From Pseudomonadota bacterium (lineage in GTDB: Bacteria; Pseudomonadota; Alphaproteobacteria; MPNO01; UBA830), in assembly GCA_036339975.1 (NCBI GenBank), contig JAYYZV010000155.1, positions 1,449 to 65,448 on the forward strand: a DNA stretch of 64,000 nt, given 5' to 3'. Below, in pieces: positions 4,136 through 47,425 of the stretch. The stretch's first letter is position 1, and each line of letters opens with the position of its first letter. Under the pieces are notes generated by a model that saw only the letters and a program-made list of their open reading frames with translations, did not search any database and had not been told where the DNA came from. A program made the translations under genes and the position numbers.

Positions 4136-5098
4136 ATGAAACCCAACTTGTTTGCCGGCTCGCAACTCGCCCCCGTCTTCCGGGAGTGCGCTTTCTGCCT
4201 TTGGGATGTCGGTGCGCGCGGTGGCGTGGACCCAATATTCGCACCGTTTGCATTTGCGATTGACGCGGTCGGATTCGAGCCAGATCCGCCGGCTTTTGCA
4301 GAGTTATCTTCCTCAGGGCGATGGCGCAGCGAGAAGTTTTTCGAGACGGCCCTTGGCGGTCCCGACACTGGTTCCACTCTGAATATCACTAGTGACCCGG
4401 CCGGCGCGTCCTTTCTGAAACATGATGTGGCAATAGGTGTCCGTTATGGTCTTGACGATTTGTTCCAGGTTAGGCGTACCGTCGAAATTCCTACCGTGAC
4501 GATTGACCACGCAATGGCTGAGCTGGGCGTACCGGCGCCCACCCTTCTGAAACTCGACGTAGAAGGTCTGGAACTCGATATTCTAAAGGGTGCTGCTGAG
4601 GCGTTGAAAGGTGTCGTCGCGATAAAGCTCGAAGCCGGTTTTATGCGCCACCGATTTGGCCAGCCGCTGGTGGGCGAAGTGATCGCATTTCTAGAATGTC
4701 ATGGTCTTTATGCCGTCGATCTGGTTGACCAGATGCGCTGGCGCAAGCGGCCTTGGGCCGGGGATCCATATTCCGTAAAGGGGACACCCCCCTATTCGCG
4801 GGGTAGGTTGGCACAGGCGGACATCATATTTCTGCGCGAACCGCGGACAATAACACCCGGCATGGCAAGGCCAGCCGCATTAGCCGCCATCGGTCTTGGC
4901 TACTTCGATCACGGTTTAGAGTTATTGCGCGAAGGCAGCGACGAAGACGATAACTTCCTGCAAAATGCGATTTCTATAGCATCCAAACTCTATGCGCGCG
5001 CGCGGGGGCGACAAGAACTTCGAGACAGTATCATCCATATTTCCCGACTTGTGCGATCGCTAACAGTTGGCCTGAATGTACCGCCGCGGAATTCCTGA
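4136..5098 (+). CDS. FkbM family methyltransferase
   Basis: LLKLDVEGLELDILKGA and DVGARGG segments are typical of FkbM-domain SAM methyltransferases. Start uncertain, no clear ribosome-binding site. Confidence 0.6.
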   Translation: MKPNLFAGSQLAPVFRECAFCLWDVGARGGVDPIFAPFAFAIDAVGFEPDPPAFAELSSSGRWRSEKFFETALGGPDTGSTLNITSDPAGASFLKHDVAIGVRYGLDDLFQVRRTVEIPTVTIDHAMAELGVPAPTLLKLDVEGLELDILKGAAEALKGVVAIKLEAGFMRHRFGQPLVGEVIAFLECHGLYAVDLVDQMRWRKRPWAGDPYSVKGTPPYSRGRLAQADIIFLREPRTITPGMARPAALAAIGLGYFDHGLELLREGSDEDDNFLQNAISIASKLYARARGRQELRDSIIHISRLVRSLTVGLNVPPRNS

Positions 5099-36174: not shown

Positions 36175-37653
36175 TCAATCCATCAGATAACCGTATTTCT
36201 CCTTCGCCTCGCGAACCAATTCCGGCTTCGGCGCATTGACGGTTGGGAAGCTATCTTTCCAGTGGAAGGGCTTACAGGCGTCGATTATTGCCCTGCTGTT
36301 GGTGATGTTGCCGTTAGCTTTCTGTTCGGGTGTCAGGCGAGGATCGGCAGGAGAGGTCCAGGCACCCTTTACGATGTCGATCGTTGTCGCAGGGTCGCAT
36401 CGTGTACACATGGCCCAGATGAGCTGTTCCAGATTGGTTACGTCTATATCTTCGTCGACCACGATTATAAATCGGTTGGCGTAATTTGCTGCCTGACACT
36501 GGGCCGCTATATGGCCGGCCTGTTTCGAATGACCCGGGTAGCGTTGCTTGATAGCCACGCCATGGAGTAATCGTGATGCACCGATTTCGTGGCACCAAAC
36601 ACTGGTGACGTCTGGCACGCCAGCGTCTGCCAAATTTTGTTTCAGCATGGCTGACCGCAATACGGCTCGGTATCGTGCCATCTCGTCCGATCCCTGCCCC
36701 ATTGGCGGCACCCCCAATATGATTGGGTCGTTACGATGATATATCGCCTCTACTTCCAGAACTGGTTCCGGGTGCTCACCGCTGGCATAGTAGCCCGTCC
36801 ATTCGCCAAAGGGACCTTCGTTTTTTACTTTACCTTCATACAAATGTCCTTCGAGGACGATTTCTGCATTAGCGGGAAAAGGTAAGCCGGTGATTTTGCC
36901 GGCAACACATTCCACTGCCTTACCACGAATGCCGCCGGTTATATCCAGCTCGAACGTTCCGTAGGGCGCCTCGGCCCCGCCGTTAAAGAACGCGATGGGC
37001 TCACCACCGATAACCATTGCTACTGGGCAAGGTTCACCCTTCGCCCAGTATTTGTTTCGGTGCACAAAACCGTGTTTGCCGGTTACCATGAAACAGCCAA
37101 CGGATTTTTTATCATGGACCATGGCGCGATAGGCGCCGCAGTTCATCCACCCTTCGTCCGGATCGCGGGTAACAGTATATGTGCCGGTGCCGATATAACG
37201 GCCACCATCTTCTGGGTGCCACATAGGTGTTGGGAACTTCATTAAGTCGACATCGTCATTGGTGAGTATATTCTCGAATACGGGGCCATCCTCGACCATC
37301 ACGTGTGGAATGGTCTTGCGTTCTTTTACGAAGGCGTTGAAACAGCCGTCGGAAAGCTCTTGCTTGGTGAGATGATCAGGAAAGCCCAGCGTCATATTAC
37401 GACGCAACCCACCGAACACATTGATTAGTACTCGGAAACCGTCTGGACAGCCCGGTACCCTGTCAAATAAAACCGCGGGGCCGTCGTCTTCCCGGATCAC
37501 CACCTCGGCGGCAAGCCCGATGTCCTTTTCCCAGCTGGCGCCGTCGACGCGTTTAAGTTCCCCGAGGCGGTCTGCCTGCTCGATCCAGTCGCGCAGATCT
37601 TCGTATGTGAAATTCTGGGCCGTATTGGCCCGTGATTGATCGATGTTATCCAT
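36175..37653 (-). CDS. UbiD family (prFMN-dependent) decarboxylase, paralog 2
   Basis: 492 aa. UbiD-family conserved blocks GEPCPVAMVIGG, AEIVLEGHL, EGPFGEWTGYY (catalytic Glu region), and C-terminal IVVDEDID. Confidence 0.85.
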   Translation of the reverse strand: MDNIDQSRANTAQNFTYEDLRDWIEQADRLGELKRVDGASWEKDIGLAAEVVIREDDGPAVLFDRVPGCPDGFRVLINVFGGLRRNMTLGFPDHLTKQELSDGCFNAFVKERKTIPHVMVEDGPVFENILTNDDVDLMKFPTPMWHPEDGGRYIGTGTYTVTRDPDEGWMNCGAYRAMVHDKKSVGCFMVTGKHGFVHRNKYWAKGEPCPVAMVIGGEPIAFFNGGAEAPYGTFELDITGGIRGKAVECVAGKITGLPFPANAEIVLEGHLYEGKVKNEGPFGEWTGYYASGEHPEPVLEVEAIYHRNDPIILGVPPMGQGSDEMARYRAVLRSAMLKQNLADAGVPDVTSVWCHEIGASRLLHGVAIKQRYPGHSKQAGHIAAQCQAANYANRFIIVVDEDIDVTNLEQLIWAMCTRCDPATTIDIVKGAWTSPADPRLTPEQKANGNITNSRAIIDACKPFHWKDSFPTVNAPKPELVREAKEKYGYLMD

Positions 37654-37662
37654 GGTAGTTTT

Positions 37663-37839
37663 CTAATTCTTAATAATTTCCTTGGCGTCTGCTGACGTGA
37701 ACGCATGGCCACAGCTCGGACAGATCAAGTCGATATCGCTCATCTTCAGCAACGCAGGTGATACATGAAACCAGTGATCGCATTTCCGGCACTGAGCCCA
37801 GTTGGAATTGCCTTGTTTTTCGAACGGTGCGTCGGTCAT
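37663..37839 (-). CDS. Small Cys4 zinc-ribbon protein (58 aa), candidate accessory small subunit of the UbiD pair (BsdD/VdcD/PpcC-like in size and position)
   Basis: Found by hand; below the 60-aa cutoff of the six-frame track. Translation: MTDAPFEKQGNSNWAQCRKCDHWFHVSPALLKMSDIDLICPSCGHAFTSADAKEIIKN, giving CxxC-x19-CxxC. Starts 8 nt after the UbiD-1 stop and ends 9 nt before the UbiD-2 start. Confidence 0.55.
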   Translation of the reverse strand: MTDAPFEKQGNSNWAQCRKCDHWFHVSPALLKMSDIDLICPSCGHAFTSADAKEIIKN

Positions 37840-37847
37840 TTGGAGTC

Positions 37848-39260
37848 TCAGCTGGGCCAGCTAGACATATCCACACCGTCCAATGTCGCCGTCGCGGCGG
37901 CCAATGCTTGGTCAGATACTCTGTTGCGGGGTGCCACGGGTTTGGGCTGATTTGGCAGGGCGGCGGCTGGGAGTGTTGCGTCGATTGCGGCTTTGGTGAT
38001 GGTATTGCCAGACGCCGGCGCGGAAGGGTCGAGCGGCGCTAAGGTTAGACCGTTGAGACGAATTACATCGCGATGCCATTGCACGCGGGTGGCCAGAGCC
38101 CACATTGCCTGACGGTCGTCGAAAATATCTATATCATCATCGAACGCATACACCGCCTTTAGACGCCGGAAGGCGATTGCCGCCATCATGGCATCGCGAG
38201 CTTCGCCGGGGCGTGGGTTCTTAAACTGCAGATAGGCATGGAACCGTCGCCCTGATACCGGCACATGTACGTTGATCAATGAAGGCGACACCTGACGAGC
38301 AAGAGAATAAACGTAGCCTTCCATACCCATGTTGTCTGGGACGAGGTGGTCGGGTAGGCCTGACCCGCAATCGTGGTAAATAGCATCCTTCCGCCGGGTT
38401 ATGCATGTCACTTCAACGACCGGATTGGGAATCTGTGGCCCCTGATAGCCGGAAAACTCAGCGAAAGGACCCTCGGCCTCGATCCGGTTGGGCGGAAGAA
38501 AACCCTCGATCACGATCTCAGCGTCCGCCGGTACCATGATTTTGTCGCCATGGGTCACGGAAGGTGCGAGCCGTAAAGGCTTGCCGAGCGCACCGCCGGC
38601 GACGCCCCAATGGCTTTCCGGATAGCCCAACTTTGACTGCGCACCCATTTCGATCGCCGGGTGATGGCCGATCCAGATAGCTACCGGACAAGGCTCGCCA
38701 TTTTTCCAGAACTTCCGGAGATTTATCATGTTGTGCGAAGTTTCCAGCATATAACAGCCCATCAAATTTTTTCCACGGACCCACAGCCGCTGGATTCCCA
38801 TATTGTCTATCCCGGTATCCGGATCGTAGGTCACAACATGTCCGCAGGTTACGTAGTGTCCGGCATCTCCATCATGCTGGCGTAGAGCCGGTAAAACCTG
38901 AAGATCTGCAACATCGCCTTCCTCAACGATTTCGCGTACCGGAGCCGAGGTGGGATCGACCGTGACCGGATCTATCGCACGTGCCGAAAGCCCGGCCATT
39001 TCCTTGGCCGAGTTTCGATGATCTTCTATCCCCATGGCTCTTGCTGAAAGTTCGCGGCTAGCGAACAGATTGGTGAGCACCGGCATATCAGAAATTCTTC
39101 CGTTGGGAAGTTTCGGCTGGCGTACCAGAATTGCGGGGTTGGCATTCCTCGCCGCCATGACGTGCTGTAGTGCCGTGATTTCCTGTTCGACTGCAATAGG
39201 TTGGTCAGGCCGAAATATCGCATTGTCGATTTCGTTAAGGTAGGTGCGTAGATCAGTCAT
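37848..39260 (-). CDS. UbiD family (prFMN-dependent) decarboxylase, paralog 1
   Basis: 470 aa. GEPCPVAIWIGH, AEIVIEGFL, EGPFAEFSGYQ and FDDDIDIFD blocks, homologous to paralog 2. Start overlaps the upstream PhyH gene by 8 nt. Confidence 0.85.
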   Translation of the reverse strand: MTDLRTYLNEIDNAIFRPDQPIAVEQEITALQHVMAARNANPAILVRQPKLPNGRISDMPVLTNLFASRELSARAMGIEDHRNSAKEMAGLSARAIDPVTVDPTSAPVREIVEEGDVADLQVLPALRQHDGDAGHYVTCGHVVTYDPDTGIDNMGIQRLWVRGKNLMGCYMLETSHNMINLRKFWKNGEPCPVAIWIGHHPAIEMGAQSKLGYPESHWGVAGGALGKPLRLAPSVTHGDKIMVPADAEIVIEGFLPPNRIEAEGPFAEFSGYQGPQIPNPVVEVTCITRRKDAIYHDCGSGLPDHLVPDNMGMEGYVYSLARQVSPSLINVHVPVSGRRFHAYLQFKNPRPGEARDAMMAAIAFRRLKAVYAFDDDIDIFDDRQAMWALATRVQWHRDVIRLNGLTLAPLDPSAPASGNTITKAAIDATLPAAALPNQPKPVAPRNRVSDQALAAATATLDGVDMSSWPS

Positions 39261-40095
39261 TCGGGGCTGTCGATCTTTCCACTTCGGAGATATTTTCGGG
39301 ATCGATATAGGAATTCCAGAAGTCGTTGTAGTACTTCAAATTGGCTGGGTCGAGGTCACGCTCGGGCAATGGGTCGCGTTTCCAATATCCGTAATCGTCC
39401 TTTCCGCGCACCAGGATTGCGGTGTTTAGCTGATTAGTTGGCTTTACGTGCGTCGGACAGAAGACGAATAAGATTCCCACACGGCGACGATCGCTGGTGT
39501 TGGGTTCCGACGAATGCGCCAGCCGGAAGTGGTGCAAGGTGCACTCTCCCGGGTCCAATTCGACGTTGATAGCGCCGGATTCGTCAAACTGGTCTGATGA
39601 AATTTTTTGTCCGCGGGCTAACATGTTCTGCGGGTCGTGAGTTTCATCATGCATCATTTCCGGATCGTTGTGACTGCCGGGAAGGTATTTAAGGCAACCG
39701 TTGTCGAAGTGACTATCGGTAATTGCGATCCAAGCGCTCCATACTTCCATCGGCTCGTACCCAAAGTAAGCCGAATCCTGATGCCAGGTCACAAAGCGTG
39801 GGTCGCGCGCATCCTTGGGCCAGATCGCACAGGTCGTAAGCAGTATGTCAGGTCCTAACACGTCTTCTATGGCGTCCAGAAGTTTGGGTGTTGTTCCGAG
39901 CTCGAATAGCCACTTAAACAGGACATGTGGTTTTACTGAAAGCAATTCCGGTACATCGATACCCTGCCGCGCCTCAACTGACTCATACGCGGCCCTTACT
40001 TTGGCTATATTGTCACTATCCATAATTCGGACCGGAAAGACGCATCCGTCCGCCTGCGCGCGCTTCATTTGCTCTTCCGTCAGCAACTTGGTCAT
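39253..40095 (-). CDS. Phytanoyl-CoA dioxygenase (PhyH) family Fe(II)/2-oxoglutarate-dependent oxygenase
   Basis: WHQDSAYF (HxD iron ligands) and later His in the LHHFRLAHSS region; about 280 aa, typical of PhyH-family proteins. Confidence 0.7.
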   Translation of the reverse strand: MTKLLTEEQMKRAQADGCVFPVRIMDSDNIAKVRAAYESVEARQGIDVPELLSVKPHVLFKWLFELGTTPKLLDAIEDVLGPDILLTTCAIWPKDARDPRFVTWHQDSAYFGYEPMEVWSAWIAITDSHFDNGCLKYLPGSHNDPEMMHDETHDPQNMLARGQKISSDQFDESGAINVELDPGECTLHHFRLAHSSEPNTSDRRRVGILFVFCPTHVKPTNQLNTAILVRGKDDYGYWKRDPLPERDLDPANLKYYNDFWNSYIDPENISEVERSTAPND

Positions 40096-40396
40096 TTCCG
40101 CTTTCTCCCACGAAACAGAGCAAAAGAATGGCGGCGTGAGGCGGCAGTGTCCAGAGGATTGGGGTAGGCTCGCCTGGAAACCAGAGAAATTCCGGGGGTC
40201 GCGGACTACGTCTTGTTAACCACGCGGCTGCTCTATAAGATTTCGATCGATTGTTTGTCTGCACCACCGGTTCGGAGGTTTTGGCTGCGGGTTTATTGTC
40301 CTAGCAAACAATTGCGATTAGTCGGGTCGCGGGGGAGTGCGTACATTTGACATACAGCCGGGGGTTTTCCCGGTATCCAAATCAGGGAAACGCATA

Positions 40397-41461
40397 ATGG
40401 GAAAATTTAGGGTGATTAGTAGGGGTATCGCAGCGGCAGCAGTGTTAGGGGCCGTGGCAGTATCCCCGGTACAGGCGCAGAAATATAATTTCAAACTCAC
40501 CTCCTTTGTCCCGGCAAAGGGCGGTTTTTGGAATAACTACATGGGTCGTTTCATCAACGCTGTCGATCTGATGACTAACGGCCAAGTAAAAATCAAGGGT
40601 TACAGTGTGGGTGTGCTAGCAGGCCCATTTGATGGATGGAAAGCGGTTCAAAAAGGCACTGCCGATATCTGTTATTGTTATCCGGGCTTTGCGGTCAATG
40701 CTGATCCGTCAAACGGCATCTTCGCCGGCATGGTGGGCGGGATGCCGATGGAAGAGTTCATGCACTGGTTCGTAGCTGGAGAGGGAACCAAACTACTCAC
40801 AGAGATGAGAAGCAAAACACAGAAGCTTCACCCCGTTGTCACCGGTTTTGGGCCAACAGAGATATTTCTGCATTCCCATCGAAAAATTCAGACCATTGCC
40901 GATCTCAAAGGAATGAAAATCAGAACAGCGGGAGCCTGGGCTGATATTTTGAAATTGGTGGGGGCATCGCCGACGGTTCTACCGCCGGCTGATATATATA
41001 CTGCGCTAGAACGGCGCGTGATTGATGGAACGGAATTCACGTCGCCGTCAACAAATATCAAACTAGGCTTTCATAAAATTGCTAAGTACATCATCGTCCC
41101 AGGTATTCATTCTCCGTCTCACATGAATGAAGCCGTATTCAGTGAGAGTACTTGGAAGAGCCTGCCCAAAAAGATTCAAGAGCAGATCACGGCCGCTGGA
41201 CTCTACGCTGGGTTTAGGACGGCTATGAAGGCTGGTCTGGATGACATCCAAGCCATGGAAACTATGAGTAAAGGCAAAAACGAGTGGGTTTCACTTACTG
41301 CGGCCGCACAACAAAAAATTAAGGACCTTGGTCGGGAATGGTCTTTCGATCAGGCAAAAAAACAGTCGGCTAAAGGAAACCCATGGATGGCGAAGGTTGC
41401 GGGGTCTTACTGGGGTTTCTATGACCGGTGGAAGAAGTACGGTACCTACCGGCATAACTGA
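40397..41461 (+). CDS. dctP: TRAP transporter substrate-binding protein (DctP family)
   Basis: Signal peptide (RGIAAAAVLGAVAVSPVQA) followed by a DctP-type periplasmic binding fold of about 330 aa. ATG at 40397 with AGGGAAA upstream; the listed ORF from 40337 is an upstream extension. Confidence 0.8.
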   Translation: MGKFRVISRGIAAAAVLGAVAVSPVQAQKYNFKLTSFVPAKGGFWNNYMGRFINAVDLMTNGQVKIKGYSVGVLAGPFDGWKAVQKGTADICYCYPGFAVNADPSNGIFAGMVGGMPMEEFMHWFVAGEGTKLLTEMRSKTQKLHPVVTGFGPTEIFLHSHRKIQTIADLKGMKIRTAGAWADILKLVGASPTVLPPADIYTALERRVIDGTEFTSPSTNIKLGFHKIAKYIIVPGIHSPSHMNEAVFSESTWKSLPKKIQEQITAAGLYAGFRTAMKAGLDDIQAMETMSKGKNEWVSLTAAAQQKIKDLGREWSFDQAKKQSAKGNPWMAKVAGSYWGFYDRWKKYGTYRHN

Positions 41462-41511
41462 CCATAAACAAATTCTGGGGCCGAAGCCTTTGCATCTATA
41501 AATGCTTTGAC

Positions 41512-42084
41512 TTGAGCTTCGGCCCCGATTTTAAAATGCGTCGCATCCTCTCCATAGTTGACAGGGTCTCGGTTCTCCTCGCCGTGATAGCGGGGGTTAT
41601 GTTGCTGGTCCTGATTGTTGACATGATGTACGAGGTCGTTTCACGTCGCGTGTTCTCCGCACCGACGCTATGGGCTTACGATATCGCTTATATGGTCAAC
41701 GGTGTCGGTTTCCTTTTTGCTGCAGGTTACACACTCCGCAAAAACGCCCATATACGCATTGATTTTCTGTCTACGCGGCTGGCTCGACGGCATCAGGACT
41801 GGATCAATGTGGTTGCGTACATTTTTCTAATTTTTCCGGCATTATTGTTTTTTGTCATCGGCGCGTATTCTGAATTTGTAGAGGCTTTCAAGACGAATGA
41901 ACTCGACCCAGCCAGCCCTTGGAAACCTCTGTTGTGGCCGCTTTTTGCGGGTCTGTTGATAGGATTTACAGGCCTTTTTCTGCAGGCCGTTGTGGAATGC
42001 ATACGACATACCTATAGCGCCCTTGGTTTAATTCTGTCGCCACTGGAGCAGTCAGGAGACAGCCTGACCGAGAAAAATGGCTGA
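41512..42084 (+). CDS. dctQ: TRAP transporter small permease (DctQ family)
   Basis: 4-TMS, about 180 aa, located between the DctP and DctM genes. The alternative ATG at 41536 could also be the start. Confidence 0.75.
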   Translation: MSFGPDFKMRRILSIVDRVSVLLAVIAGVMLLVLIVDMMYEVVSRRVFSAPTLWAYDIAYMVNGVGFLFAAGYTLRKNAHIRIDFLSTRLARRHQDWINVVAYIFLIFPALLFFVIGAYSEFVEAFKTNELDPASPWKPLLWPLFAGLLIGFTGLFLQAVVECIRHTYSALGLILSPLEQSGDSLTEKNG

Positions 42085-43402
42085 TCTGTCCTTAGCTGTT
42101 TTTATGTTTCCGATGCTGTTTTTGCTGGTATTTGCAGGTATACCGGTCGCATTTAGCCTGATCGCTACAGCCTTTCTGTTCGGTGTGATGGAGTTCGGCA
42201 TGGTGCTGCCAACTCAATTCCACAGCCGTCTGTTCGACGTAACATCCAATTTTGTGCTTGCCGCTATTCCGTTGTTTGTATTCATGGGTGCGATGCTGGA
42301 GCGTGCGGGCATCGCTGCCCGACTTTTTGAAGCGATCAAGATCTGGTTTGGCGCGCTGCGCGGTGGCCTAGCGATCACGACCATTATCATGTGCGGCATC
42401 TTTGCGGCTTCGTCTGGTGTCGTCGGCGCGGTCGAAATTGTCGTAGGCCTGATGGCGGTGCCAGCGATGATGGGGGCTGGATATAAAAAGGATCTTGCAG
42501 CCGGCACAGTCTGTGCCGGCGGGTCTTTGGGCACTACTATCCCGCCATCCGTAGTCATTATCGTTTATGCGTCCATCACAGAACAGTCAGTCGGCGATCT
42601 GTTCGCCGGAATTCTTATTCCTGCCGGAGTGCTGGTTAGTTTGTTCCTAGTCTATATCGTCGGCCGTTGCCTATTGCAGCCCGAAGCGGGCCCCGGTCTC
42701 TCCGCTGACCAAGAAAGAGTACCACTATCAACTAAGTTATGGTTGATGCTGACAGCTTTACTTCCTGCGTCGTTACTGATCGTCGCTGTCTTAGGTAGTA
42801 TTTTTGCCGGTATCGCGGCTCCAACGGAAGCGGCTGCCGTGGGAGCGATGGGCTCCGTTCTTCTCGCGATCGCCTATCGTCAATTTTCTTTCCGTATTTT
42901 GAAGGAAGCCGTGACCCAGACAATCAAGATCACGTCGATGGTAATGTTAATCGTACTCGGTGGGATTTTATTCGCCAGCGTGTTCATCATTCAAGGTGGT
43001 GACGACCTGGTATCCAATATTGTAGAAAGCACCGGCCTAGGGCCAGCAGGGATCGTGGTAGTGTTTTTGCTGGTTGTCTTTGTGCTTGGATTCGTTCTGG
43101 ATTGGATATCGGTGTTAATCATCGTGCTACCGATCGCCGACCCGATCGTCCGTGCGGCAGAGATAGATCCGCTATGGTTCGGCGTTATGGTTTGTATCAT
43201 CCTGCAGACATCGTATTTGACACCCCCGATGGCACCGTCAATCTTTTATCTACGGTCTATTGCGCCCAGAGAAATTACCTATATCGACATGTACAAGGGT
43301 GTCGTGCCTTTTGTTTTAGCGCAACTCCTGACACTGGCTATGGTCGCGATTTATCCCGTGACCGCCACGTGGTTACCGGAGGTTCTGTTCGGCGGCTTCT
43401 AG
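42077..43402 (+). CDS. dctM: TRAP transporter large permease (DctM family)
   Basis: 441 aa, about 12 TMS. Overlaps the dctQ stop by 8 nt, the classical TRAP operon order. Confidence 0.85.
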   Translation: MADLSLAVFMFPMLFLLVFAGIPVAFSLIATAFLFGVMEFGMVLPTQFHSRLFDVTSNFVLAAIPLFVFMGAMLERAGIAARLFEAIKIWFGALRGGLAITTIIMCGIFAASSGVVGAVEIVVGLMAVPAMMGAGYKKDLAAGTVCAGGSLGTTIPPSVVIIVYASITEQSVGDLFAGILIPAGVLVSLFLVYIVGRCLLQPEAGPGLSADQERVPLSTKLWLMLTALLPASLLIVAVLGSIFAGIAAPTEAAAVGAMGSVLLAIAYRQFSFRILKEAVTQTIKITSMVMLIVLGGILFASVFIIQGGDDLVSNIVESTGLGPAGIVVVFLLVVFVLGFVLDWISVLIIVLPIADPIVRAAEIDPLWFGVMVCIILQTSYLTPPMAPSIFYLRSIAPREITYIDMYKGVVPFVLAQLLTLAMVAIYPVTATWLPEVLFGGF

Positions 43403-43414
43403 AGCCACAAACAG

Positions 43415-44746
43415 CTAACCGGTTTCTGAAATTGCTTCGCCCAATATTGAGATGATCTCGGTAATTTGGCCCGTCGTCGCAATCAGGGGTGGCGACATGG
43501 CAATGGTATCTCCAGTTTGACGTACCAGCAGGCCTTTTTCGTAGCACTTGAGAAAAACTTCATAGGCCCGGGCCGTAGGCTCACCGTCGCGAGGAGACAA
43601 CTCTACCGCTCCCATCAAACCCAAATTGCGGATATCTATAACGTTCGGCATGGGCTTCAGCCCGTGAATAGCATCTTCCCACATCGGTGCCAGAGCCTTA
43701 CCCCGGCTAAACAAGTCGTCTTCCGCAAATACGTCGAGCGTCGCCAGCGCCGCCGCGCAGGCCAGAGGGTGCGCGGAGTAGGTATAGCCGTGAAAAAGCT
43801 CAATCATTTGGGACGGTCCATGCATAAACGTGTCATATATTTCAGCGCGAGCAGCGACCGCAGACATCGGCACGGTGCCGTTGGTCAAGCCCTTCGCCAT
43901 GGTCAAAAGGTCCGGCACAATCCCGAAATACTCTGCGGCAAAAGTATCTCCAAGTCGGCCGAAGCCAGTGATGACCTCGTCAAAGATTAACAAGATGCCA
44001 TTGGCGTCGCAGGTTTTGCGCAGTTTATCGAGATATCCTTTCGGCGGCACTAACACGCCCGTAGATCCCGCTACAGGTTCGACGATGACCGCGGCGATCG
44101 TGGAAGGATCATGTAACGCGATGATACGTTCCAAGTTGTCTGCCAGATGGCCGCCCCAGTCCGGCTCACCCCGTGAGAAGGCCATTTCAGCTAGATTATG
44201 GGTGTGCGGAAGGTGATCTATACCTGCCAGTAGATTTCCGAACTGTTTTCGGTTGTTCGAAATGCCGCCTACCGAGGTACCCCCGATGCCGACACCATGA
44301 TAACCGCGTTCGCGCCCGATCAGCCGGGTGCGGCCCGCTTCGCCACGGAGTTGATGATATGCCAGCGCCATTTTCAATGCCGTGTCGACTGCTTCCGAGC
44401 CAGAGTTAGCGTAAAACACGTAGTCGAGATCACCTGGAAACAGGTTGGCGAGCCGCGATGACAGGTCGAAAGCGCCGGGGTGTCCCCACTGGAATGTAGG
44501 CGCATAATCCATGACACCCGCCTGAGTGCGGATGGCCTCCGTGATTTTCTCCCGCGCGTGGCCGGCGTTGACACACCACATGCCGGCTGCTGCATCCAGA
44601 ATCTGACGCCCCTGATCGTCCGTATAGTGCATGTCTTTAGCGGAAACCATTAGCCGCGGAGCCGATTTGAACTGTCGGTTCGCTGTAAACGGCATCCAGA
44701 AATGCTCAAGAGTGTTGGTCTTTCGTGCCGTTGCGTCGTCGGGCAT
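43415..44746 (-). CDS. Class III (omega) aminotransferase, beta-alanine/omega-amino acid--pyruvate transaminase-like
   Basis: PLP fold type I class III. FDEVITGFGRLG region with the PLP-Lys context TMAKGLTNG; 443 aa. Confidence 0.8.
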   Translation of the reverse strand: MPDDATARKTNTLEHFWMPFTANRQFKSAPRLMVSAKDMHYTDDQGRQILDAAAGMWCVNAGHAREKITEAIRTQAGVMDYAPTFQWGHPGAFDLSSRLANLFPGDLDYVFYANSGSEAVDTALKMALAYHQLRGEAGRTRLIGRERGYHGVGIGGTSVGGISNNRKQFGNLLAGIDHLPHTHNLAEMAFSRGEPDWGGHLADNLERIIALHDPSTIAAVIVEPVAGSTGVLVPPKGYLDKLRKTCDANGILLIFDEVITGFGRLGDTFAAEYFGIVPDLLTMAKGLTNGTVPMSAVAARAEIYDTFMHGPSQMIELFHGYTYSAHPLACAAALATLDVFAEDDLFSRGKALAPMWEDAIHGLKPMPNVIDIRNLGLMGAVELSPRDGEPTARAYEVFLKCYEKGLLVRQTGDTIAMSPPLIATTGQITEIISILGEAISETG

Positions 44747-46207: not shown

Positions 46208-47425
46208 TTATTCGATTGCTTTTGCTTCCTCCAACATTTGCATCAGAGATGATCGCATTAGGTAATCCCGCTTAGCTTCTGCATCAGTCGCGGTAAACTC
46301 TAATTCCTTGAGACGTTTTTCCCGCGCCTCTGGATCGTTTTCCTCCAGCAGTCTCTTGTTGGCGATAGACTGCGCCTGAACGTATTTCTCGGCCATTGGC
46401 CGTCGTTGGCGGTCGTAGCGGCTGAGCAGGGCATCATAGTCACCACCGTGCCAAGCTGCGACGAGCTTCTCGGCCAGGTTCAGCCCGTCATGAATTCCAC
46501 TATTCATTCCCATGCCGCCTAGAGGGTTGTTTACATGGGCGGCGTCCCCTGCGAGTGCGACCCGACCCTTCGCGAAGCTTTCAGCCACCCGCTGATGCAC
46601 GCTATAGAGATTTCTGTGTAGCAGGTCGTAAGGTGGATCGTACGGATAGCACTCGGCGAAGCGGGCTTGGATCCATTCATCACTGAGCAGGTATTCGTCG
46701 GTGCTATCGCCGAAAGCCGGAAAGAGCGCCCGCCAGACACCCTCGGCCTGCTCGCCCGGCACCTTGATCATTGCACACCATTGTTCCGGATGCGCGACGT
46801 AGTTGCGATACCGATAGCCGGCCGCCGCCTCAAAGTCATAGTAGGTAGACACGATAATGAACCGTTCTTCCCAGGTAAAACCTGGGAAATTAATATCGAG
46901 TAATTTGCGCACCGCTGATTTCCCGCCGTCGGCTCCGATCAGAAATTTTCCGCGATGTGTTTCAGTCGATCCGTCCGGCGCTTGGACGCGGGCTTCAACC
47001 CCGTCATCGTCCTGCGATAACTCCGAGAGTTTATGTTCGCGATAAAGCTCGAATCCGTCGATAGCCACCGCAATGTCGTGAGCGATTTCAATCGTCTTGT
47101 GCTGTTCCAGCTGTAGCGCATAAGGGTAGGTAAGAACATCTGAGATATCGCGATAATCAAACTCTGCGACGATGCGGTCGCTCATCCGGTCGCGCCACTG
47201 AAAAAGTGGGGATTGGATGCCCCGACGGATAAGCTCCTCTGTCATATCCAATTTTTCGAGTAGCATCAGTGTCGAAGGGTGCAAAGTGGACGCTCGGTGG
47301 TCCGCCGGTATTTCAGCGAGTGTGTCAAACACCTTTACCGGTATGCCTGCTTTCGACAAGGCTAGAGCCGTGGTCATACCCACCGGTCCCGCTCCTGCTA
47401 TCAAAATGCAATCGTTGTTCGCCAT
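46208..47425 (-). CDS. FAD-dependent monooxygenase (UbiH/salicylate hydroxylase-like, class A flavoprotein)
   Basis: ILIAGAGPVGMTTALAL (GxGxxG) and GRVALAGDAAHVNNPLGGMGMNSG (GD and DG fingerprints). Confidence 0.8.
   Translation of the reverse strand: MANNDCILIAGAGPVGMTTALALSKAGIPVKVFDTLAEIPADHRASTLHPSTLMLLEKLDMTEELIRRGIQSPLFQWRDRMSDRIVAEFDYRDISDVLTYPYALQLEQHKTIEIAHDIAVAIDGFELYREHKLSELSQDDDGVEARVQAPDGSTETHRGKFLIGADGGKSAVRKLLDINFPGFTWEERFIIVSTYYDFEAAAGYRYRNYVAHPEQWCAMIKVPGEQAEGVWRALFPAFGDSTDEYLLSDEWIQARFAECYPYDPPYDLLHRNLYSVHQRVAESFAKGRVALAGDAAHVNNPLGGMGMNSGIHDGLNLAEKLVAAWHGGDYDALLSRYDRQRRPMAEKYVQAQSIANKRLLEENDPEAREKRLKELEFTATDAEAKRDYLMRSSLMQMLEEAKAIE

Follow-up and report, generated by a model that had tools for sequence, protein, structure and literature searches.

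In the 64,000-nucleotide (nt) stretch of the Pseudomonadota contig JAYYZV010000155.1 that was analysed here, which is referred to as the window and whose numbering is used for all its coordinates, two genes for UbiD-family enzymes lie on both sides of a small open reading frame (ORF) that encodes a putative zinc-ribbon protein, and this small gene and its likely relation to one of the two enzymes are the subject of the present analysis. The ORF covers positions 37663..37839 of the minus strand, with an ATG start at 37839..37837 and a TAG stop at 37665..37663, and its product of 58 amino acids (aa), MTDAPFEKQGNSNWAQCRKCDHWFHVSPALLKMSDIDLICPSCGHAFTSADAKEIIKN, contains both knuckles of a CxxC...CxxC pair, namely C17/C20 (CRKC, 37780..37791) and C40/C43 (CPSC, 37711..37722). 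On the same strand, the upstream gene encodes a UbiD-family protein of 470 aa (UbiD-470; 37848..39260), with its TGA stop codon 8 nt before the ATG of the small gene, and the downstream gene for a paralogue of 492 aa (UbiD-492; 36175..37653, minus strand) starts 9 nt after the TAG. The junction between UbiD-470 and the small gene is the octanucleotide GACTCCAA (37840..37847, minus strand). As the sole Shine-Dalgarno-like element at the start of the small gene is a weak TGAGA that overlaps the UbiD-470 stop codon, translation of the small gene is probably coupled to that of UbiD-470, and the two genes are probably co-transcribed. Among the five syntenic relatives described below, TGAGA is kept in four (L001-L004), and the fifth (L005) has a TGATG overlap. 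An Rfam search of the inter-UbiD gap gave no match at E<=1, and the counts of promoter and terminator sites around the gap were at the level of shuffled sequence, without any excess.

A first-pass annotation had proposed this ORF, without stating its strand, as a protein with a CxxC...CxxC pair that had escaped the ORF track, and had pointed to a competing, out-of-frame ORF of 68 aa that overlaps the 3' end of the upstream UbiD gene. All of this could be reproduced: the frame is absent from the track since 58 aa is just under the default 60-aa cut-off of the ORF lister, and the competing ORF starts with GTG, spans 37670..37876 on the minus strand and reaches 29 nt into UbiD-470. The additional statement that the gene is unannotated and lost by gene callers goes too far, as the NCBI nr database holds an identical protein ([quoted passage not shown], MAG standing for metagenome-assembled genome), and family members have been called in several other assemblies. 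What the gene lacks is a functional annotation only; the protein itself is already listed by NCBI.

The length of the ORF by itself is weak evidence for a gene, because an ATG-initiated ORF of at least 58 aa arises in 3.7% of the shuffles of the 194-nt inter-UbiD gap, and the significance of the ORF therefore rests on conservation. One could thus suspect a chance ORF, with either nothing encoded in the gap or the 68-aa frame being the real one, and the weak Shine-Dalgarno element would fit this suspicion. A scan for orthologues with one genome per species gave five syntenic loci from Alphaproteobacteria or Pseudomonadota MAGs (L001-L005), all with the gene order PhyH - UbiD-470 - small ORF - UbiD-492 - MFS (major facilitator superfamily); a sixth hit from a Gemmataceae genome (L006) matched over 20 residues only and was set aside. 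The frame with the four cysteines (Cys4 frame) is intact in all five, with 57-58 codons, 62-72% protein identity and retention of the four cysteines and the CDHWFH segment. The mean proportions of nonsynonymous (pN) and synonymous (pS) differences are 0.167 and 0.771, respectively, which gives a pN/pS ratio of 0.22; the corresponding rate ratio dN/dS is 0.07-0.13 where dS is unsaturated, and differences at codon positions 1, 2 and 3 amount to 227, 92 and 428, so that the third position dominates. For the other two frames, pN/pS is 1.25 and 2.18, the latter being the frame of the 68-aa ORF, which in addition is interrupted by a further in-frame stop codon in four of the five relatives and whose product found no family in the Pfam search. 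The G+C content at third codon positions (GC3) of the small gene is 0.593, close to that of four flanking genes (0.577-0.605), as against 0.42 for the 68-aa frame, and the codon-usage log-odds score is +12.0 bits for the Cys4 frame and -33.4 and -14.0 bits for the others. Both comparisons had been suggested as checks by the first-pass annotation, which had named protein-level conservation of the 68-aa frame as the finding that would speak against its proposal; it is the Cys4 frame that is conserved in the relatives, and the 68-aa frame is not. Together with the size of the protein family, which comprises 80 clusters with invariant cysteines, and with the linkage to UbiD genes described below, these data refute both the chance ORF and the 68-aa frame, for which we see practically no chance left. 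The 58-aa ORF is a genuine protein-coding gene under purifying selection.

To which family does the small protein belong? No curated Pfam or NCBIfam model matches it above its cut-off. The best Pfam match is Zn_ribbon_4 (PF13717) with 23.0 bits at a gathering threshold of 30.3, and the best NCBIfam match is MJ0042_CXXC (TIGR02098) with 15.7 bits at a cut-off of 20.9. These generic matches start at about residue 15-16, and residues 16-48 align end to end with the 36-residue Zn_ribbon_4 model. A hidden Markov model (HMM) of the family, searched against 1.84 billion representative proteins clustered at 50% identity, recovered 80 clusters at E<=1e-3, 20 of them at E<=1e-10, nearly all of which are stand-alone proteins of 52-75 aa. 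Within a family alignment of 68 sequences, 51 match PF13717 at E<=0.01 (best 7.8e-9) and 40 match TIGR02098, and the family core is therefore an MJ0042-type zinc ribbon; in line with this, NCBI names some members "MJ0042-type zinc finger domain-containing protein". This similarity points to a relationship at the superfamily level, as the MJ0042/Zn_ribbon_4 models are generic and carry no function, and they cover neither the N-terminal motif of the family nor its linkage to UbiD genes.

In both family alignments (the 68 sequences and 64 unique sequences from metagenomic loci), C17, C20, C40 and C43 are invariant. The first knuckle, C17-x2-C20, is followed by W23-F24 (CRKCDHWF, 37768..37791, minus strand), and the second, C40-P41-x-C43, by F47 (CPSCGHAF, 37699..37722, minus strand). 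Outside the generic zinc-ribbon core, an N-terminal motif E7-K8-x-G10-N11-x-x-W14 (EKQGNSNW, 37798..37821, minus strand) precedes the first knuckle. Among the 64 unique members, G10 is invariant as well, and conservation reaches 97% for K8, 91% for N11, 97% for W14, 97% for W23, 95% for F24, 92% for P41 and 94% for F47, which results in the family signature [WF]-E-K-x-G-N-x-x-W-x-x-C-x(1,2)-C-x-x-W-F ... C-P-x-C-x-x-x-F. Judged from these alignments, the EKxGNxxW extension appears to be specific to this family. An AlphaFold2 (AF2) model of the monomer, computed with the family alignment, has a mean predicted local distance difference test score (pLDDT) of 81.4 and shows short strands flanking each knuckle as well as one short helix. 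In a Foldseek search of the PDB, this model matched zinc-ribbon and treble-clef domains only, none of them significantly (best E 0.13), and a direct sequence search for solved structures found nothing beyond spurious hits of the C2H2 or PHD type on the CPxCG segment, which were discarded. The family HMM also matches tandem repeats of about 50 residues in four proteins that are 680-1900 aa long and secreted or anchored at the surface (P0005, P0057, P0065 and P0078); these repeats, of the form H...C.E.GN.EY[WY].C..C.K[YF]F.D, have the GN..W..C..C..F core in common with the 58-aa family, which may reflect homology or convergence, and the long proteins look unrelated.

The genomic context of the family was assessed from both sides. 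Starting from the small protein, nine distant family members with 26-43% identity to the window protein were inspected, and eight of them directly follow a UbiD gene or a UbiD fragment at a contig end, as recognised by Pfam domains or BLAST; the contig of the ninth keeps only 27 aa of the upstream gene. Seven of the upstream genes or fragments could be aligned by BLAST, and all of these match UbiD-470 (43-62% identity) and match UbiD-492 weakly or not at all (28-34%), the eighth being assigned to the UbiD family from its Pfam domains only. In these distant loci, the small gene overlaps the UbiD gene by 4-16 nt or follows it with a gap of at most 24 nt. Starting from the enzyme, metagenomes were searched with a UbiD-470 alignment, which gave 80 loci with 52-91% identity, and 75 of these, with at least 230 nt downstream of the UbiD gene, were counted. 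The family HMM detected a member directly downstream on the same strand in 68 of the 75, and with two loci added by inspection (L026 and L081) the small ORF directly follows in 70.

The second UbiD gene does not share this linkage. The order UbiD-470, small ORF, UbiD-492 was found only in the window, in the five syntenic relatives and in 14 metagenomic loci from close relatives (83% identity or more). At loci with 52-63% identity, the downstream flank (up to 2.5 kb) contains no UbiD-492 orthologue, and the small ORF is kept in almost all of them; the downstream gene, where identifiable, usually encodes a TENA_THI-4/haem-oxygenase-like protein, accompanied by a short-chain dehydrogenase (SDR). 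Two further loci are instructive: in L099 an Amidohydro_2 gene is placed between the small ORF and the UbiD-492 orthologue, and L101 contains no second UbiD at all. As the small gene is kept where UbiD-492 is displaced or absent, it is tied to the UbiD-470 clade and not to the UbiD pair. The earlier statement that the gene fills the inter-UbiD gap without overlap thus describes the window correctly, given the spacers of 8 and 9 nt, but the position between two UbiD genes is a local accident of this lineage, and across the family the gene is found behind a single UbiD clade. The 58-aa gene is tightly linked to that clade, not to the inter-UbiD gap.

This linkage bears on the question whether the small protein has anything to do with the enzyme at all. 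It could be a zinc-finger regulator, an RNA- or DNA-binding protein or a metal-handling protein that merely shares the operon, and the generic nature of its similarities (23 bits to the MJ0042/Zn_ribbon_4 type, found likewise in the 51 of 68 members), as well as the NCBI name of one member as an MJ0042-type zinc finger protein, would be compatible with such a role. A passenger would not be expected to hold its position behind one UbiD clade across 52-91% identity while the downstream genes change, the protein has neither a helix-turn-helix nor a basic patch, and the lack of an Rfam element and of a promoter or terminator excess nearby also speaks against a regulatory role. We therefore regard an unrelated function as very improbable.

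The two enzymes themselves belong to different clades. UbiD-470 contains the Pfam domains UbiD_N, UbiD and UbiD_C, and its best solved relative is the furan-2,5-dicarboxylate decarboxylase PtHmfF (6H6V, 213 bits); it is predicted to be a decarboxylase of the UbiD family that depends on prenylated flavin mononucleotide (prFMN) and belongs to an HmfF-like clade. UbiD-492 is assigned to the UbiD family by Pfam and is best matched, among solved structures, by the phenazine-1-carboxylate decarboxylase PhdA (7PDA, 368 bits). The two paralogues are 29% identical, and both retain the motifs N-x4-R and E-G-P-F-x-E, whose counterparts in A. niger Fdc1 supply the metal-ligand Asn, the catalytic Arg and the two catalytic Glu residues. 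As both keep the catalytic motifs and belong to different clades, they may well be independently competent, which points to a separate decarboxylation step for each of them and not to a heteromer. Across 50-90% identity, UbiD-470-clade proteins keep a C-terminal tail of the form ...G(V/T)D.S.WP.. (DGVDMSSWPS here, at about 37851..37880, minus strand), which ends directly before the start of the small gene and could belong to an interface or to a coupling signal.

The alternative of a heteromer has a precedent in phenylphosphate carboxylase (PpcABCD), whose small gamma subunit PpcC is likewise encoded together with two UbiD-like genes. By analogy, the 58-aa protein might be a bridge that joins UbiD-470 and UbiD-492 into a hetero-oligomer, and the location of its gene between both UbiD genes in the window, in the five syntenic relatives and in the 14 close metagenomic ones would be in agreement with that. 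Furthermore, the top NCBIfam match of UbiD-492 is indeed the Ppc beta subunit (TIGR02724, 293.8 bits), and multi-UbiD carboxylases come with small subunits of unknown role (PMC8379154). Nevertheless, this score is far below the cut-off of 468.95, and the same is true for UbiD-492 with the Ppc alpha model (TIGR02723; 178.1 bits, cut-off 564.6) and for UbiD-470 with the beta and alpha models (108.7 and 94.2 bits). The genes annotated around the locus in the window include no phosphatase of the haloacid dehalogenase (HAD) type, as would be expected for the delta subunit. Most members of the 58-aa family accompany a single UbiD gene, the two-UbiD layout does not extend beyond relatives of 83% identity or more, and it is seen neither in the 52-63% relatives nor in L099 and L101. 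The retention of the catalytic motifs in both paralogues also fits two independent enzymes. As the small gene tracks UbiD-470 alone, we rejected a Ppc-like heteromer as main explanation and consider the bridging role improbable; it is more likely that the locus encodes two separate decarboxylases, only one of which has a small partner.

If the small protein is a partner of UbiD-470, the best precedent is VdcD; the searchable literature describes no other zinc-ribbon protein as a partner of a UbiD enzyme, nor did we find a paper in it that connects such a small protein to the UbiD-470 clade. VdcD is a protein of less than 10 kDa with a three-stranded sheet that holds its zinc by four cysteines in two CxxC knuckles (PMC8379154). 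Its complex with the UbiD enzyme VdcC is tight, and the two co-purify; VdcD buries about 1660 Å2 on VdcC beside the loops that carry the catalytic E-R-E triad and is strictly needed for activity (PMC8379154). Together with BsdD, EcdD and ShdD it constitutes subunit D of non-oxidative hydroxyarylic acid decarboxylases (NF041205; PDB 7AE4 chain a). The 58-aa protein resembles VdcD in several respects, as it is small and stands alone (58 aa versus about 68-75 aa in VdcD), has two CxxC motifs about 20 residues apart in what is modelled as a zinc-ribbon fold, and is encoded directly adjacent to a UbiD-family decarboxylase gene. It cannot be counted as a VdcD, however. VdcD starts at the first knuckle and ends in a Pro-rich tail, whereas the 58-aa family has the conserved 16-residue N-terminal extension with EKxGNxxW and lacks a tail rich in Pro, and the window protein ends in ...TSADAKEIIKN, without any Pro. 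Its partner UbiD-470 is HmfF-like and not a VdcC (NF041204, 230 bits at a cut-off of 650), the window locus has no adjacent UbiX/VdcB gene, and the hosts of the 58-aa family are Alphaproteobacteria MAGs, several of them titled "marine", and a range of metagenomes. The small protein thus resembles VdcD, yet sequence, tail, partner clade and operon content all place it outside the VdcD family.

The tight linkage to one UbiD clade, taken together with the analogy to VdcD, leads us to propose that a real Cys4 zinc-ribbon gene is coupled to UbiD-470 and that its product is a small accessory subunit of that enzyme, a reading that we hold to be likely as a whole. We infer zinc binding, complex formation with UbiD-470, an activating role and the class of the substrate as follows. 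C17, C20, C40 and C43 would chelate one Zn2+ and thereby hold together the zinc ribbon, outside and around whose core the EKxGNxxW extension and the exposed aromatic residues W14, W23, F24 and F47 would be placed. The protein could dock on the surface of UbiD-470 and stabilize or activate the enzyme in a way comparable to that of VdcD on VdcC. Translational coupling would ensure that the small protein is made in step with UbiD-470, and the enzyme would help to break down a (hetero)aromatic carboxylic acid that may be imported by the neighbouring TRAP (tripartite ATP-independent periplasmic) and MFS transporters.

Several observations weigh against such an accessory subunit. Homology to VdcD was not detected by any of three approaches: the VdcD model NF041205 matched neither the window protein at E<=1 nor any of the 68 family members at E<=0.01, with B. 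subtilis BsdD as positive control reaching 108.8 bits at a cut-off of 30; hhalign gave a probability of 5% for the family profile against BsdD/VdcD; and VdcD (7AE4) was absent from the Foldseek matches of the 58-aa model. A single-sequence model of a fusion of UbiD-470 with the 58-aa protein, computed with no alignment, was uninformative with a pLDDT of 34.8. For PtHmfF, the PDB results contain UbiD chains only, and HmfF is not known to need a small subunit for activity. The 120 best UbiD-470 homologues include no natural fusion of the enzyme to the zinc ribbon, and those among them that are longer are explained by N-terminal mis-starts. In L001-L005, identity is 81-93% for the neighbouring UbiD proteins and only 62-72% for the small protein, which thus evolves faster. 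Last, five of the 75 counted loci (L085, L086, L090, L091 and L095; 52-53% identity) lack the small ORF: their UbiD ends with ...AWPKF*, and a PqqC/TENA-like gene follows directly, so that the 58-aa protein is not universally required. As a lineage in which the gene was naturally lost, these five loci could reveal if the enzyme can do without its partner.

A related possibility is that the small protein acts as a transient maturation or assembly factor, for example in metal or prFMN loading or in folding, comparable to LpdD, which is larger than the 58-aa protein and is not known to be a zinc ribbon. The linkage to UbiD-470 fits such a helper equally well, and the loss of the gene in five loci would be easier to understand if the protein were a helper and not an obligate subunit. 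A UbiX or other prFMN-supply gene was not found in the 64-kb window, where a tblastn search with an E. coli UbiX sequence gave nothing better than E=3.6, and this may be taken to favour a loading function. Chaperone-type accessory proteins of UbiD enzymes are known: LpdD is described as a prFMNH2-binding chaperone of the gallate decarboxylase LpdC that is needed for active LpdC (PMC10865409), and like the 58-aa protein it is encoded together with its UbiD decarboxylase. On the other hand, a zinc ribbon of only 58 aa offers no evident pocket to hold prFMN, and the tight translational coupling suggests a roughly stoichiometric synthesis. It also has to be considered that LpdD, PpcGamma and VdcD share no sequence similarity with one another (PMC8379154), and that no curated family matched the 58-aa protein above cut-off. 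Taken together, we consider a transient helper rather unlikely, though worth keeping in mind, and favour the accessory subunit of UbiD-470.

The surroundings of the three genes are in agreement with a catabolic function. A gene for a PhyH-like Fe(II)/2-oxoglutarate dioxygenase (39253..40095, minus strand; Pfam PhyH, 93.8 bits) overlaps the start of UbiD-470 by 8 nt and is apparently the first gene of the operon. The order PhyH - UbiD-470 - small ORF is kept in the five syntenic relatives as well as in L099 and L101, in which the PhyH-like gene is found at 4167..5000 and 4161..4991, respectively, despite the displacement or absence of UbiD-492; it is unusual for a dioxygenase to be paired with a decarboxylase that uses prFMN. 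The operon is flanked by divergently transcribed genes for a TRAP transporter, DctP/Q/M (40337..43402, plus strand) and, on the minus strand, by genes for a class-III aminotransferase (43415..44746) and an FAD-dependent aromatic-ring hydroxylase of the FAD_binding_3 family (46208..47425), and the neighbourhood also contains three MFS genes. Such a gene content suggests a catabolic island for the uptake and breakdown of a (hetero)aromatic or otherwise conjugated carboxylic acid.

Distant loci of the UbiD-470 clade have a different surrounding, as the small gene is followed there by a TENA_THI-4/Haem_oxygenase_2 (PqqC-like) gene and a short-chain dehydrogenase gene (L007 6253..7666; L013 5219..6644; L015 5196..5915; L096 711..2163; and many of L037-L095). 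Frequent neighbours are genes for an aldehyde dehydrogenase, for a regulator of the GntR type and for transporters of the TRAP or MFS type, and the whole appears to be a conserved, uncharacterised catabolic module. The Amidohydro_2 gene of L099 (6695..7702) is located on a 4.5-Mb metagenome contig. As the Amidohydro_2 family includes non-oxidative aromatic acid decarboxylases, this locus may hold three putative decarboxylases.

What do these observations mean for UbiD enzymes in general? UbiD-family (de)carboxylases are sought-after biocatalysts, many of which are unobtainable in active form. The 58-aa proteins constitute a family of micro-proteins for which there is no curated model and whose labels do not go beyond "hypothetical" or generic zinc finger, and with them a second family of small partners, unrelated in sequence to VdcD, would be tied to a whole uncharacterised HmfF-like clade. 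The linkage is not a new principle, but it gives UbiD enzymology and the annotation of micro-proteins a concrete lead that can be tested. One may go a step further and propose, tentatively and with chances that we would place somewhat below even, that the protein is an obligatory activator of this HmfF-like clade and represents, as its first example, a second family of zinc-ribbon micro-subunits of independent origin. If it is such an activator, UbiD-470-clade enzymes would be inactive when expressed without their 58-aa partner, and if it is such a second family, small zinc-ribbon activators would be a recurrent, convergent means to control the domain dynamics of UbiD enzymes.

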